15,710 nucleotides of DNA, taken from the IMG/VR virus record IMGVR_UViG_2778261360_000006; one strand, written 5' to 3'. This document shows positions 56 to 4,359 of the stretch, in pieces. Both the position numbers and the translations under genes were made by a program. Every line of letters starts with the position of its first letter. The first letter of the stretch is position 1. The notes under the pieces are model-generated. The model did not search any database. It was not told the DNA's origin and worked only from the letters and a program-made list of their open reading frames with translations. The DNA is from a virus (lineage: Duplodnaviria; Heunggongvirae; Uroviricota; Caudoviricetes).

Positions 56-516
56 ACCGCGTACTGTGCGTGGTCATTATTGCCCTGCTGGTGGCCTGTG
101 GTGCGCTTAGTCTGGGGCTGAATCATTACCGTGATAACGCCATTACCTACAAAGCCCAGCGCGACAAAAATGTCAGAGAACTGAAGCTGGCGAACGCGGC
201 AATTACTGACATGCAGATGCGTCAGCGTGATGTTGCTGCGCTCGATGCAAAATACACGAAGGAGTTAGCTGATGCGAAAGCTGAAAATGATGCTCTGCGT
301 GATGATGTTGCCGCTGGTCGTCGTCGGTTGTACATCAAAGCAGTCTGTCAGTCAGTGCGTGAAGCCACCACCGCCTCCGGCGTGGATAATGCAGCTTCCC
401 CCCGACTGGCAGACACCGCTGAACGGGATTATTTCACCCTCAGAGCGCGACTGATAATAATGCAAAAACAACTTGAAGGGGCACAGCTATACATTCGAGA
501 GCAATGCCTCAGATAA
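52..516 (+). CDS. Rz: Rz i-spanin (inner-membrane spanin subunit)
   Basis: 154-aa ORF. Translation from [17 protein letters not shown] onward is nearly identical to lambda Rz as I recall it; N-terminal hydrophobic transmembrane segment present; Rz1 is embedded in the +1 frame. Confidence 0.95.
272..454 (+). CDS. Rz1: Rz1 o-spanin, outer-membrane lipoprotein, embedded within Rz in another frame
   Basis: 60-aa [27 protein letters not shown]... with lipoprotein signal and lipobox (LVVVG-C), proline-rich PPPPP core; near-identical to remembered lambda Rz1 and located wholly inside Rz. Confidence 0.9.
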
Positions 517-786
517 AAACCGGCCAAGGATAATCCGCTGAAGATTCGCCGGTGGCTAAAGTGTGCCAAGAGTTCAATTTACGCAATTACTCCTGTCGAT
601 GCTATGCACCGTCTTTGTGAAGTCAATGGATACCTGATTTATTTCTGTGCGCTGTATCGTCGCTGTACTCTTGCATTAATTATGACTGTAGCCTGACTGG
701 GAACTCCTTCTGCACAAGTGTGGGGGAATAATCAAAAACGGTGCACACCGGGGTTACCGGGTACACATATTTCATCATGCCAGCGA

Positions 787-815
787 GTCCGGTTCTGGCA
801 CGGAAGAAACCGGAC
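787..815. terminator. Hairpin (8-bp stem GTCCGGTT / AACCGGAC, 13-nt loop) immediately 3' of the minus-strand 136-aa gene; possible weak or bidirectional terminator
   Basis: Perfect inverted repeat at 787-794 and 808-815 read directly from the sequence; flanking U-tract is weak on both strands, so terminator function is uncertain. Confidence 0.25.
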
Positions 816-823
816 GTTATGAT

Positions 824-1234
824 TTAGTGCGGAAATATTTGTGTAGTGTTCTGAATGTTCTCAGTAAAGAGTAATGAATTATCAAAGGTATAGTAATACC
901 TTTTGTTTTCGTGGATATTTGTAATCCATCTGAAAACCCCTGCTGTAGCAAGATTTTTCCTGTATTCGTAAAATGATAACTCTCCTGATTTGAATCCTTT
1001 TAAGGTGGCTTCTATAAGGCATTTATTTTTTGAAAATCTTACATTTACAACCTTACCCTGTCCTTTTATTAAAACCGTATTATCGTTTTCAAGAACAAGA
1101 TGAATATTCTCTGTGGCTAAATAGTAAATGTAATGTGAGACATTGTGACGTTTTAGTTCAGAATAAAACCAGTGATAGTTTAAATTATTTCGCACTTTAT
1201 CGAATATTTGTTTAAAAATGGCAACCTGAGCCAT
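824..1234 (-). CDS. Hypothetical protein, 136 aa from the SD-supported start at 1234 (ORF track extends to 1249); AT-rich moron gene, possibly DUF1398 / YbcV-YdfO-like prophage protein
   Basis: Long ORF in an otherwise non-coding, visibly AT-rich stretch. GGAAGG Shine-Dalgarno 7 nt upstream of the ATG at 1234. Family assignment is only by recollection of size and position of ybcV in E. coli DLP12 (between lysis genes and the Nu1 homolog); not verified. Confidence 0.65.
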
Positions 1235-1291
1235 TGTAGTACCTTCCATGTGATATGAGGGGGCGTAGTCTGCACGATTATCTAAATTGCT

Positions 1292-1525
1292 TCAATCTGG
1301 TCTGACCTGTTTTCTGAGCAATTCAGTAATGTCACTCTTTTCTTTGTTTGCTTCAGGCGAAACTCTTTTTTCTGAGCACAGTCTCCGGCGGCAGGCTTCA
1401 ATGACCCAGGCTGAGAAATTCCCGGAACCTTTTTGAACAAGAGCGATGTTAATTTGTTCAATCATTTGGTTAGGAAAGCGGATGTTGCGGGTTGTTGTTC
1501 TGCGGGTTCTGTTCTTCGTTGACAT
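1292..1525 (-). CDS. Small ribbon-helix-helix (CopG/Arc/MetJ-like) DNA-binding protein, 77 aa; upstream gene of the minus-strand cassette
   Basis: Translation has a basic N-terminal tail (TRRTTTR), putative beta-strand NIRFP, helix NQMIEQINIALVQKG, G-S-G-N turn, helix FSAWVIEACRRRL: the canonical RHH layout. Same strand as and 57 nt upstream of the 136-aa gene. Shine-Dalgarno is weak. Confidence 0.55.
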   Translation of the reverse strand: MSTKNRTRRTTTRNIRFPNQMIEQINIALVQKGSGNFSAWVIEACRRRLCSEKRVSPEANKEKSDITELLRKQVRPD

Positions 1526-1694
1526 GAGGTTGCCCTGTATTCAGTGTCGCTGATTTGTATTGTCTGAAGTTGTTTTTACGTTAAGTTGATGCAGATCAAT
1601 TAATACGATACCTGCGTCATAATTGATTATTTGACGTGGTTTGATGGCCTCCACGCACGTTGTGATATGTAGATGATAATCATTATCGCTTTAC

Positions 1695-1701
1695 GGGTCC
1701 T
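1695..1701 (+). promoter_or_regulatory. cosQ-like element (GGGTCCT) about 25-30 bp upstream of cosN
   Basis: The 34 bp preceding cosN (ttacgggtcctttccggtgatccgacaggttacg) match the lambda right end as I recall it, and lambda cosQ lies in this position. Exact cosQ boundaries are from memory. Confidence 0.45.
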
Positions 1702-1724
1702 TTCCGGTGATCCGACAGGTTACG

Positions 1725-1736
1725 GGGCGGCGACCT
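1725..1736 (+). other. cosN: 12-nt cohesive-end sequence GGGCGGCGACCT (terminase nicking site)
   Basis: Exact match to the lambda 12-nt cohesive end, flanked by lambda-like right-end sequence on the 5' side and followed by CGCG...TTTTC.CTATTTATGA like the lambda left end; located about 215 bp upstream of the Nu1 start. Confidence 0.85.
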
Positions 1737-1952
1737 CGCGCGTTTTCACTATTTATGAGATTTTTTGAGGGGGTGGTTGTTGTTTAATTGTTTGGTATAT
1801 CTAATTGATAAGTAAGGTGAAAATAAAATAAATACAACAACCTTACGATGTGTTTTGATGTCGTCAATGCGAAAAATGTCAATGATATCAAATGGTTTTG
1901 CAAAAACACATGGTTGTTGTTTCGCTTTTTATCGATGACTTATGGAGAGGAG
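1737..1952 (+). promoter_or_regulatory. cosB-like region between cosN and Nu1 with three copies of a GGTTGTTGT(TT) motif (1775-1785 +, 1834-1842 inverted, 1912-1922 +) and an A-rich, likely bent segment (1817-1833)
   Basis: Repeats read directly from the sequence. By analogy with lambda cosB (R3-I1-R2-R1 binding sites for gpNu1 and IHF) these are candidate small-terminase binding elements; the motif differs from lambda R sites. Confidence 0.5.
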
Positions 1953-2459
1953 ATGGCCTTTTTATTGAATAAAAGTGATATGGCCTCCTCCATCGGTATC
2001 TCTGTTCAGGCATTTGATAAATGGGGCGTTCCTCCTGTTGAACGTCGGGGGAGGGAAGTTTTATATGACGTTAAAACTGTACTAGAGATAGATCGCGAGC
2101 GGCGACAACACAATCAGAGAACACCTGATGACGGGGGAGAACTGGAGGAAAGGCTGCTTCGGGCCAGAGCTGAACTGACAGAAGAACAGGCTGTAGCTCA
2201 AAAACTTAAAAATCAGGTAACCGAAGGTAAGCTCATCGATTCAGACTTTTGCGTTTTCGCCCTCAGCAAACTGGCGATGGCATTGTCCAGTACGCTTGAT
2301 TCCATTCCGTTATCCATGCAGCGACAGTTCCCGGATTTAACGCCACGTCATATTGACCATCTGAAAACCCTTATTGCAAAGGGCGCAAATCAGTGTGCGC
2401 GGGCAGGGGATAAATTACCGGATTTGCTGGATGAATATATCAGAGCAACAACTGAATAA
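1953..2459 (+). CDS. nu1: Terminase small subunit (gpNu1-like); start taken at ATG 1953 rather than the ORF-track start 1848
   Basis: Translation from MAFLLNKSDMASSIGISVQAFDKWGVPPVERRGREVLYDV aligns with the lambda Nu1 N-terminal winged-HTH (…IRTIQNWQEQGMPV…GNEVLYD…) and C-terminal region (…LSMQRQFPDL…). GGAGAGGAG Shine-Dalgarno precedes 1953; the 1848 extension would cover cosB repeats. Confidence 0.85.
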   Translation: MAFLLNKSDMASSIGISVQAFDKWGVPPVERRGREVLYDVKTVLEIDRERRQHNQRTPDDGGELEERLLRARAELTEEQAVAQKLKNQVTEGKLIDSDFCVFALSKLAMALSSTLDSIPLSMQRQFPDLTPRHIDHLKTLIAKGANQCARAGDKLPDLLDEYIRATTE

Positions 2460-4359
2460 TATGGTGGCCGCCGTTTCGGTTGCGCTGCAGCCTCTGGTCA
2501 GGGTTGTACCGATGACGGCAGTTGAATGGGCTGACCAGTATTATTATCTGCCGAAAGAATCCTCATACGGTGACGGCGAATGGAAAACGCTGCCGTTCCA
2601 GATCGCCATCATGAACAGTATGGGGAATGATCAGATCCGCACTGTTAATCTGATTAAATCTGCCCGTGTTGGCTATACAAAGATGTTGCTGGGAGTCGCC
2701 GGGTATTTTATTGAGCATAAATCCCGAAACAGTCTGCTTTTTCAGCCCACGGATTCTGCCGCTGAAGATTTTATGAAGTCTCACGTGGAGGCGACGATTC
2801 GGGACGTGCCATGCCTGAAAGATCTTTCCCCGTGGCTGGGTCGTAAACATCGTGGTAATACCCTCACGCTGAAACGCTTTTCATCGGGGGGGGGCTTCTG
2901 GTGCCTGGGTGGTGCGGCAGCAAAAAACTACCGTGAAAAATCCGTGGACGTGGTCTGCTATGACGAACTTTCCTCGTTCGAGCCGGATGTCGAAAAAGAG
3001 GGCTCGCCAACCCTGCTGGGGGATAAGCGTATTGAGGGCTCGGTATGGCCAAAATCCATTCGCGGCTCGACGCCTAAAATAAAAGGCTCCTGCCAGATCG
3101 AAAAAGCGGCCAACGAGTCGGCGCATTTCATGCGTTTTTATGTGCCCTGCCCGCACTGTGGGGAGGCGCAGTATCTGAAATTTGGCGATGAGTCCACGCC
3201 TTTTGGCCTTAAATGGGAGAAGGACAGCCCCGAAAGCGTTTTCTACCTCTGTGAACATCATGGCTGCGTGATCCATCAGTCTGAGCTTGACCAGAGCAAC
3301 GGGCGGTGGATCTGTGAAAACACGGGCATGTGGACCCGTGACGGTCTGACGTTTTTCAGCGCTGCGGGTAATGAAATTCCGCCGCCGCGCTCCATCACTT
3401 TCCATATCTGGACGGCGTACAGTCCGTTCACCACCTGGGTACAGATTGTCTATGACTGGCTGGATGCACTGAAAGATCCCAACGGCCTGAAAACCTTTGT
3501 GAACACCACGCTGGGCGAGACCTGGGAAGAGGCCGTGGGCGAAAAAATCGATCACCAGGTACTGATGGATAAGGTTGTGCGTTACACGGCGGCGGTGCCT
3601 GCCCGGGTGGTTTATCTGACGGCGGGCATTGACTCGCAGCGAAACCGTTTTGAGATGTATGTCTGGGGATGGGCTCCGGGAGAGGAAGCCTTTCTGGTGG
3701 ATAAAATCATCATTATGGGGCGTCCCGATGAGGAAGAGACGCTGTTACGTGTGGATGCGGCGATCAACAAAAAATACCGCCATGCAGACGGAACCGAAAT
3801 GACCATTTCCCGTGTCTGCTGGGACACCGGGGGGATCGATGGCGAAATTGTCTATCAGAGGTCAAAAAAACACGGTGTTTTCCGGGTGCTGCCGGTAAAA
3901 GGTGCATCTGTTTATGGCAAGCCGGTGATCACCATGCCAAAAACCCGCAATCAGCGGGGCGTGTATCTGTGCGAAGTGGGGACGGACACCGCAAAAGAAA
4001 TTCTCTATGCCCGTATGAAAGCCGATCCCACGCCTGTGGATGAAGCCACGTCGTATGCCATCCGTTTTCCTGATGATCCGGAGATTTTTTCGCAGACAGA
4101 GGCGCAGCAACTGGTCGCGGAAGAGCTTGTGGAGAAGTGGGAAAAAGGAAAGATGCGTCTGCTGTGGGATAACAAAAAGCGGCGTAACGAAGCGCTGGAC
4201 TGCCTGGTGTATGCCTACGCGGCATTACGTGTGTCCGTGCAACGCTGGCAGCTTGATCTGGCTGTACTGGCAAAATCCCGGGAAGAAGAGACGACCCGGC
4301 CAACCCTTAAAGAACTGGCAGCGAAGCTGTCCGGAGGAGTGAATGGTTACAGTCGCTGA
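2431..4359 (+). CDS. A: Terminase large subunit (gpA-like), 642 aa; start at ATG 2431 (MNISEQQ…), overlapping the Nu1 3' end by 29 nt
   Basis: Strong colinear similarity to lambda gpA throughout (TAVEWAD..YYLPKES, FWCLGG..AKNYREKSVDV, GDKRIEGSVWPKSIRGSTPK, WTAYSPFTTWVQIV, FVNTTLGETWE, KKRRNEALDC). Lambda gpA also begins MNIS…; the ORF-track start 2374 is an in-frame upstream extension. Confidence 0.95.
   Translation: MNISEQQLNNMVAAVSVALQPLVRVVPMTAVEWADQYYYLPKESSYGDGEWKTLPFQIAIMNSMGNDQIRTVNLIKSARVGYTKMLLGVAGYFIEHKSRNSLLFQPTDSAAEDFMKSHVEATIRDVPCLKDLSPWLGRKHRGNTLTLKRFSSGGGFWCLGGAAAKNYREKSVDVVCYDELSSFEPDVEKEGSPTLLGDKRIEGSVWPKSIRGSTPKIKGSCQIEKAANESAHFMRFYVPCPHCGEAQYLKFGDESTPFGLKWEKDSPESVFYLCEHHGCVIHQSELDQSNGRWICENTGMWTRDGLTFFSAAGNEIPPPRSITFHIWTAYSPFTTWVQIVYDWLDALKDPNGLKTFVNTTLGETWEEAVGEKIDHQVLMDKVVRYTAAVPARVVYLTAGIDSQRNRFEMYVWGWAPGEEAFLVDKIIIMGRPDEEETLLRVDAAINKKYRHADGTEMTISRVCWDTGGIDGEIVYQRSKKHGVFRVLPVKGASVYGKPVITMPKTRNQRGVYLCEVGTDTAKEILYARMKADPTPVDEATSYAIRFPDDPEIFSQTEAQQLVAEELVEKWEKGKMRLLWDNKKRRNEALDCLVYAYAALRVSVQRWQLDLAVLAKSREEETTRPTLKELAAKLSGGVNGYSR

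Follow-up and report, generated by a model that had tools for sequence, protein, structure and literature searches.

The accessory slot between the lysis genes and cos in the virus record IMGVR_UViG_2778261360_000006 (Caudoviricetes; 15,710 nucleotides [nt], analyzed at full length and called the window below) holds two already catalogued prophage genes, ynfO of the DUF3950 family and a DUF1398 gene of the YdfO/YbcV family, and not a new two-gene system. Both genes lie between Rz/Rz1 and cos in the late region of a lambdoid prophage, which makes up the left end of the window, and are encoded on the strand opposite to that of the late genes. The region as a whole is probably a Qin-type version of the lambdoid Rz-to-packaging accessory slot, holding two separately exchangeable genes that are not coupled to each other. 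An earlier reading made from the DNA letters only (the sequence-only reading) had described a minus-strand pair between the lysis genes and cos, and its open reading frames (ORFs), 57-nt spacing, and coordinates were confirmed. Its further suggestion, a toxin-antitoxin-like or exclusion module, gives way here to a precise identification as the lambdoid ynfO-ydfO pair. The window adds no new kind of element, and the gap in what is understood of the roles of both proteins is a long-standing one.

Identity of the two genes

The pair consists of the following features.

Positions 1525-1292, minus strand: ynfO, DUF3950 / YlcI-YnfO family, 77 amino acids (Pfam PF13132 and NCBIfam NF041551)
Positions 1235-1291, minus strand: spacer between ynfO and the DUF1398 gene, exactly 57 nt, open and in frame with both ORFs
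Positions 1247-1242, minus strand: Shine-Dalgarno motif GGAAGG, 7 nt upstream of the ATG at 1234 (read from the sequence)
Positions 1234-824, minus strand: DUF1398 gene (YdfO/YbcV/lambdap78 family), 136 amino acids, 31% GC

The 136-residue protein matched Pfam profile PF07166 over its entire length (profile positions 1-119 of 119) with 147 bits against a cutoff of 22, and the earlier suspicion of a DUF1398 (YbcV/YdfO) protein was thus correct. The first ATG of this ORF lies at 1249 and would give a product of 141 residues (1249-824), while the ATG at 1234 gives 136. The Shine-Dalgarno motif serving the latter overlaps the alternative ATG (1249-1247), which itself has no such motif. Furthermore, the 136-residue start is used by RefSeq in a 99.7%-identical prophage, and the leader upstream of the MAQV start is in a different frame in lambda. 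The 141-residue start and the annotated 177-residue start of lambda were both rejected, as they have no Shine-Dalgarno motif and their frame is not conserved; judged by these signals, the true start is the ATG at 1234.

Structure prediction with AlphaFold2 (AF2) gave a predicted local distance difference test (pLDDT) score of 48 when run with close homologues only, and that model was discarded. The rerun with distant homologues, used here, reached a pLDDT of 90. The predicted fold is that of YdfO (PDB 2HH8), a close homologue with a solution nuclear magnetic resonance (NMR) structure, and consists of a duplicated helix-helix-three-strand unit. Residues conserved across the family are aromatic, polar, or arginine (Y35, T41, N43, W103, R112, and Y114), and the conserved set contains no acidic residue, histidine, or cysteine of the kind that would hint at an enzyme. 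No signal-peptide-like hydrophobic stretch was apparent by eye at the N terminus. The family is small, with 189 clusters at 50% identity among 1.84 billion representatives. PHROG 413 and several RefSeq phage records name lambdap78/DUF1398 homologues "head protein," and older records have "putative envelope protein." These labels are unsupported: the gene can be dispensed with and lies antisense to the late operon, its product has no signal-like N terminus by eye, and YdfO was solved by solution NMR.

The assignment of YnfO rests on matches to PF13132 (72.8 bits against a cutoff of 25; E value, 2e-20) and NF041551 (35.2 against 30). It is 73 to 96% identical to most of the named YlcI/YnfO proteins aligned, the lowest value being 65%. 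In an alignment of 20 homologues, the first ~50 residues were near-invariant, and the C-terminal tails were of at least five unrelated types; the tail in the window is of the Qin type, and both of these proteins have 77 residues. The N-terminal domains of the lambda, DLP12, Qin, and window alleles differ at one residue only. The DNA identity between the window and lambda, 82% over positions 648-1308, rises to 96% over positions 1363-1765, exactly where the conserved ynfO domain ends, which points to a recombination junction within the 3' portion of this gene.

The 77-residue protein had been called ribbon-helix-helix (RHH)-like, a reasonable and plausible assignment that we keep as putative. 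YnfO resembles P22 Arc and Mnt in its small size and basic N-terminal arm, followed by N-I-R-F-P, a helix, G-S-G-N-F-S, and a second helix (as a pattern, N-[IL]-R-[FW]-P-x-x-[MV]-[IL], helix, G-x-x-[NS]-[FS]-S, helix). In hhalign comparisons with Arc and with Arc plus Mnt, this pattern aligned in register with Arc residues 8-30, but with probabilities of only 1.5% and 0.5%. A PDB profile search with YnfO gave no matches at E values up to 10, and a Pfam scan at the same threshold returned DUF3950 only and no RHH family. No significant sequence or profile similarity accompanies this likeness in pattern and register. Arc and Mnt also differ from YnfO in lying in the immI region and having defined operators.

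The earlier description of the whole cassette as AT-rich holds strongly for the DUF1398 gene, but much less for ynfO. The GC content of the DUF1398 gene is 0.314 (31.4%), and its GC3 (GC at third codon positions) is 0.307; the window has 0.543. Of all 411-nt stretches in the 15.7 kb, the one beginning at position 811 has the lowest GC content, and only 0.2% of such stretches were equally low. The GC content of ynfO is a less extreme 0.444. The ratio of nonsynonymous to synonymous substitutions (dN/dS) of the DUF1398 gene was 0.18 to 0.37 among four alleles at synonymous divergences (dS) of 0.36 to 0.67; the near-identical lambda and DLP12 alleles gave 0.12. The first 50 codons of ynfO, compared with an Stx1a-phage allele, had a ratio of 0.05 to 0.10 at a dS of 0.7 to 1.0. 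By these substitution patterns, both ORFs are genuine conserved protein genes under purifying selection.

Related loci and mosaic structure

Among the closest known arrangements is ynfO-ydfO (b4533-b1549) in the Qin prophage of Escherichia coli K-12, which has the same families, gene order, and strand relation, the same 57-nt spacer with an in-frame TGA, and a likewise adjoining nohA/Nu1-type packaging gene. The cassette DNA is 87.8% identical between the two. Qin differs in its DUF1398 allele (~76% amino acid identity; dS, 0.67) and in being a rearranged, defective prophage in which the lysis genes are not adjacent, whereas the pair in the window is accompanied by intact lysis, cos, and terminase genes.

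The right end of lambda reads bor, lambdap78, lambdap79 (ybcW), an unannotated ylcI ORF, and cos, and DLP12 has the corresponding order borD-ybcV-ybcW-ylcI-nohD. Lambda shares with the window the slot itself, the orientation relative to the late operon, and cosQ/cosN. Lambdap78 (NC_001416, 47048-47452) is 76% identical in amino acid sequence to the DUF1398 protein of the window. The lambda YlcI ORF (64 residues, ~48138-48302; homologous to window positions 1363-1525) differs from YnfO by one residue over the first 49; several lambda-group records, including OR974322 and OR974318/OR974324 (lambda, DE3, HK629), carry no annotation for it. The window differs from lambda in lacking bor and ybcW/lambdap79, in a YnfO tail of 28 residues of other sequence, and in the Nu1 gene and cosB to the right of position 1765, which are of another type. 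The sequence-only reading had placed bor in this slot in lambda. Indeed, bor is there, but together with homologues of both genes and not alone. Lambda phages escaping the Vulcan defense system lose lambdap79 by recombination with Qin (bioRxiv 10.64898/2026.09.04.749371), and these recombinants reportedly acquire exactly the ynfO-ydfO layout of the window.

Relatives of the region are very common in E. coli. Megablast matches to the 1.4-kb region were obtained in 4,082 of 5,426 complete genomes. With the cassette alone, 3,800 genomes (~70%) were matched, of which 2,677 had a single place containing 80% or more of it, a number in which contiguous and ybcW-interrupted layouts are counted together. 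Roughly 50 to 70% of the complete genomes contain DUF1398. Three layouts can be distinguished: contiguous ynfO-DUF1398, as in the window and K-12 Qin; ybcV-ybcW-ylcI with an opposite-strand ybcW between the two genes, as in DLP12 and lambda; and ylcI alone, with ~1,100 E. coli genomes matching only the 5' part of ynfO. A prophage of strain STEC388 is 99.7% identical to window positions 500-1900, and the gene pair is annotated alike there.

The pair is carried on one mosaic unit.

Positions 648-1765: mosaic unit carrying the pair and the left part of cos (homology limits of IMG/VR contigs and of lambda)

About 60 of 80 IMG/VR contigs encoding a DUF1398 protein 99 to 100% identical to that of the window showed homology to the window only from position 648 to positions 1758-1771. 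The homology to lambda likewise starts at 647/648 and stops at 1765. Such sharp and recurrent limits indicate that the pair and the left half of cos form one mosaic block. The lysis genes to the left of 648 and the cosB/Nu1 region to the right of 1758-1771 are exchanged independently.

The earlier description of the pair as a horizontally acquired moron agrees with its variable presence among related phages and with the atypical composition of the DUF1398 gene. Features shared with lambdoid morons such as bor and lom are a late-region accessory gene on the opposite strand, dispensability, variable presence, and atypical composition. In contrast, the promoters of bor and lom are defined and the class of their products is known (outer-membrane lipoprotein or porin-like), whereas no consensus sigma-70 promoter was predicted for the leftward pair and the DUF1398 protein has the N terminus described above.

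Independence of the genes and possible roles

The distribution of the two families shows that ynfO and the DUF1398 gene are two independently distributed accessory genes and not a coupled system. The phage collection contains 43 records with DUF1398 and 152 with DUF3950. Phage 434 carries DUF3950 followed directly by bor, with no DUF1398. In an Stx1a phage, DUF3950 lies between Rz and an HNH DNase gene with a different small and large terminase and unrelated upstream sequence. Divergent DUF1398 genes (~20 to 45% identity) stand alone in chromosomes of Kluyvera, Klebsiella, Pseudocitrobacter, Raoultella, and Salmonella diarizonae; ycgX of K-12 is a further stand-alone paralogue, and no DUF3950 gene was found within 4 kb of the distant DUF1398 genes in 20 Enterobacteriaceae loci. 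The obligate co-occurrence expected of a type II toxin-antitoxin module was thus not seen.

The coupled regulator-plus-effector cassette suggested by the sequence-only reading would make YnfO an RHH antitoxin and autorepressor and the DUF1398 protein a toxin or abortive-infection effector. The order of the genes on one strand, with a larger protein encoded 57 nt after a small, putatively DNA-binding one, does recall type II toxin-antitoxin operons, and the adjacency recurs in K-12 Qin and, counting both layouts, across the 2,677 E. coli genomes mentioned above. However, each gene also occurs alone (DUF1398 in several Enterobacteriaceae chromosomes; DUF3950 in 434, Stx phages, and the ~1,100 E. 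coli genomes), and the opposite-strand ybcW parts them in lambda and DLP12. Neither protein matched a toxin family in Pfam, NCBIfam, or PADLOC; in PADLOC-DB v2, DUF1398 gave only a chance-level match to Csx23 (E value, 0.025) and YnfO gave none. Furthermore, an ASKA clone overexpressing ybcV was recovered, with a glycogen phenotype in a phenotypic screen and no failure to grow, and published work employed a Keio ybcV::kan deletion strain, in which ylcI is still present (PMC3945230). The toxin-antitoxin reading is therefore unsupported, and we regard it as very improbable. Programmed UGA read-through to a 233-residue YnfO-DUF1398 fusion is scarcely credible. The two ORFs are in the same frame and are separated by no stop other than the TGA of ynfO (1294-1292), and the same is true in Qin. 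However, a shared frame without a further stop over 18 codons is expected by chance in ~14% of cases by our estimate, and the spacers of Qin and the window are homologous and so provide no independent evidence for read-through. In addition, the arrangement and frame differ in lambda and DLP12, and the DUF1398 gene has its own Shine-Dalgarno motif. A database protein of 233 residues (P0014, 761 members) is a read-through of both ORFs with tryptophan at the TGA. It was apparently miscalled, since tryptophan at a stop indicates that the genes were predicted with a genetic code in which TGA specifies Trp, and such fusion proteins were rejected as gene-calling artifacts.

We favor, instead of either form of coupling, two separately exchangeable genes in a Qin-type slot, for which the following course of events can be proposed. 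Both genes read leftward, whereas the Q-dependent late transcript has to pass rightward over them on its way to Nu1/A. They are thus antisense to it, so that expression would be expected mainly when late transcription is off, i.e., in the lysogen, as for bor. YnfO is most likely a small, dimeric, Arc/Mnt-like DNA-binding protein that would bind through its basic N-terminal arm and strand-helix-helix core, probably setting the level of the leftward transcript, with a tail that may be swapped at the recombination junction. The DUF1398 protein would be soluble and most likely bind a host or phage partner to the benefit of the lysogen, either in stress tolerance or in phage-phage conflict.

Expression in the lysogen, as had been suggested earlier, would accord with the literature on homologues in K-12 cryptic prophages, which are transcribed without lytic growth. 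Transcription of ydfO was induced ~100-fold by an ionic liquid in K-12 (PMC4077768), ybcV/ybcW mRNA depends on PdhR (PMC7660256), and ybcW and ylcI give overlapping convergent transcripts (PMC12288877). The main text of Wang et al. 2010 does not mention ydfO, and the claim linking ydfO to oxidative stress is available only second-hand. In lambda, lambdap78 is nonessential by CRISPR interference (PMC10695390). The gene pair is well catalogued in the sense that both genes are named and annotated and one structure has been solved, but it is not functionally characterized.

Two further explanations concern the roles of the individual proteins. The DUF1398 protein could be a single-gene phage-conflict factor expressed from the prophage (superinfection exclusion, defense, or counter-defense), with YnfO as an unrelated neighbor or a regulator. 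This is an unlikely explanation in our judgment, even though the gene occupies a prophage accessory slot adjoining other conflict-related cargo, is AT-rich, mobile, dispensable, and very widespread in E. coli, and encodes an orphan fold that would account for its escaping recognition. Its lambda neighbor, lambdap79/ybcW, reportedly triggers the Vulcan NADase defense (bioRxiv 10.64898/2026.09.04.749371). However, there is no PADLOC match, no paper reporting a defense phenotype was found, and the stand-alone chromosomal homologues of Klebsiella lie in ordinary metabolic neighborhoods. A related proposal, which we hold only tentatively and think rather doubtful, is that the DUF1398 protein is an unrecognized exclusion, decoy, or anti-defense protein or a stress-response modulator, and YnfO an Arc-like repressor that confines expression to the lysogen. 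Alternatively, YnfO could act at or near cos as an accessory protein of packaging and not as a regulator of its neighbor. The DUF3950 gene adjoins the packaging module in every phage examined, its N-terminal domain is very strongly conserved, and the 200 bp from ynfO to cosN hardly differ among lambda, 434, and 2H10. However, ynfO is antisense to the late operon, and the DUF3950 gene of the Stx1a phage lies beside a non-lambda terminase set. Small cos fragments without the YnfO ORF support lambda packaging, a further point against a packaging function, which we consider highly unlikely.

Lambda and most E. coli genomes encode both the dispensable lambdap78/YbcV/YdfO protein, which is conserved and has an orphan fold, and the tiny, extremely conserved, DNA-binding-like YlcI/YnfO. 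The slot deserves experimental attention because the lambda neighbor of these genes, lambdap79/ybcW, has recently been reported as a trigger of a defense system.

Flanking features and minor observations

The other features of the region are as follows.

Positions 52-516: Rz (Pfam-confirmed)
Positions 272-454: Rz1 lipoprotein gene, embedded in Rz (Pfam-confirmed)
Positions 787-815, minus strand: hairpin GTCCGGTT-N13-AACCGGAC, 9 nt past the DUF1398 stop, candidate 3' end or terminator
Positions 1595-1627: inverted repeat ATCAATTAATACG-N7-CGTCATAATTGAT with 13-nt arms, 70-100 nt upstream of ynfO
Positions 1695-1701: cosQ, GGGTCCT
From position 1725: cosN, lambda-type left cohesive end GGGCGGCGACCTCGCG
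Positions 1953-2459: Nu1-type small terminase gene, after cos
Positions 2374-4359: gpA-type large terminase gene, after the Nu1-type small terminase gene

The hairpin at 787-815 may mark the 3' end of the leftward transcript. It has no clear T-tract and a fold z-score of only -1.4; one compensatory double change is found in Qin (GTCCGGCT/AGCCGGAC), and lambda has a weaker stem. The inverted repeat at 1595-1627, ~100 to 130 bp left of cosN, is the sole operator-like feature upstream of ynfO and could be a candidate operator for YnfO, a promoter element, or a cos-related element. The block containing it is near-identical in lambda, 434, and 2H10 and absent upstream of the Stx1a-type gene. Comparison is uninformative for the repeat, because the surrounding block is too conserved. 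No operator common to the two types of region upstream of ynfO, that of lambda and that of Stx1a, was found when one was searched for.

Between the lysis genes and the pair, positions 636-706 (minus strand) are a remnant of the lambda bor promoter region, with no bor gene following. Relative to the promoter annotated in phage HK630, the hexamers homologous to Pbor are degraded in the window (TGGACA to CAGTCA and TACAAT to TACAGC). A 32-residue minus-strand ORF at 680-778, annotated as a 53-residue protein in PhiR49_1, was rejected as a gene because it is broken in lambda, DLP12, and Qin. An Rfam scan of positions 1-2500 gave no match at E values of up to 1, which indicates that the slot contains no known small RNA.

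The protein searches also returned hundreds of noisy lambdap78/YlcI variants (P0019-P0120 and P0137-P0240) from ENA contigs of ~3.5 kb, most likely the 3.6-kb lambda control DNA of nanopore sequencing. Some of these hits were labeled Staphylococcus aureus, Bacillus, Klebsiella, or spider, and a record named "Campylobacter phage CJLB-4" was lambda-like. Such mislabeled hits are contamination artifacts that inflate the apparent host range. In the STEC388 prophage, the portal gene is cut short by an insertion of ISCro1 (IS66 family) and the tail genes are partly missing, while an iraM anti-adaptor gene and a tRNA cluster are present upstream of the lysis genes.
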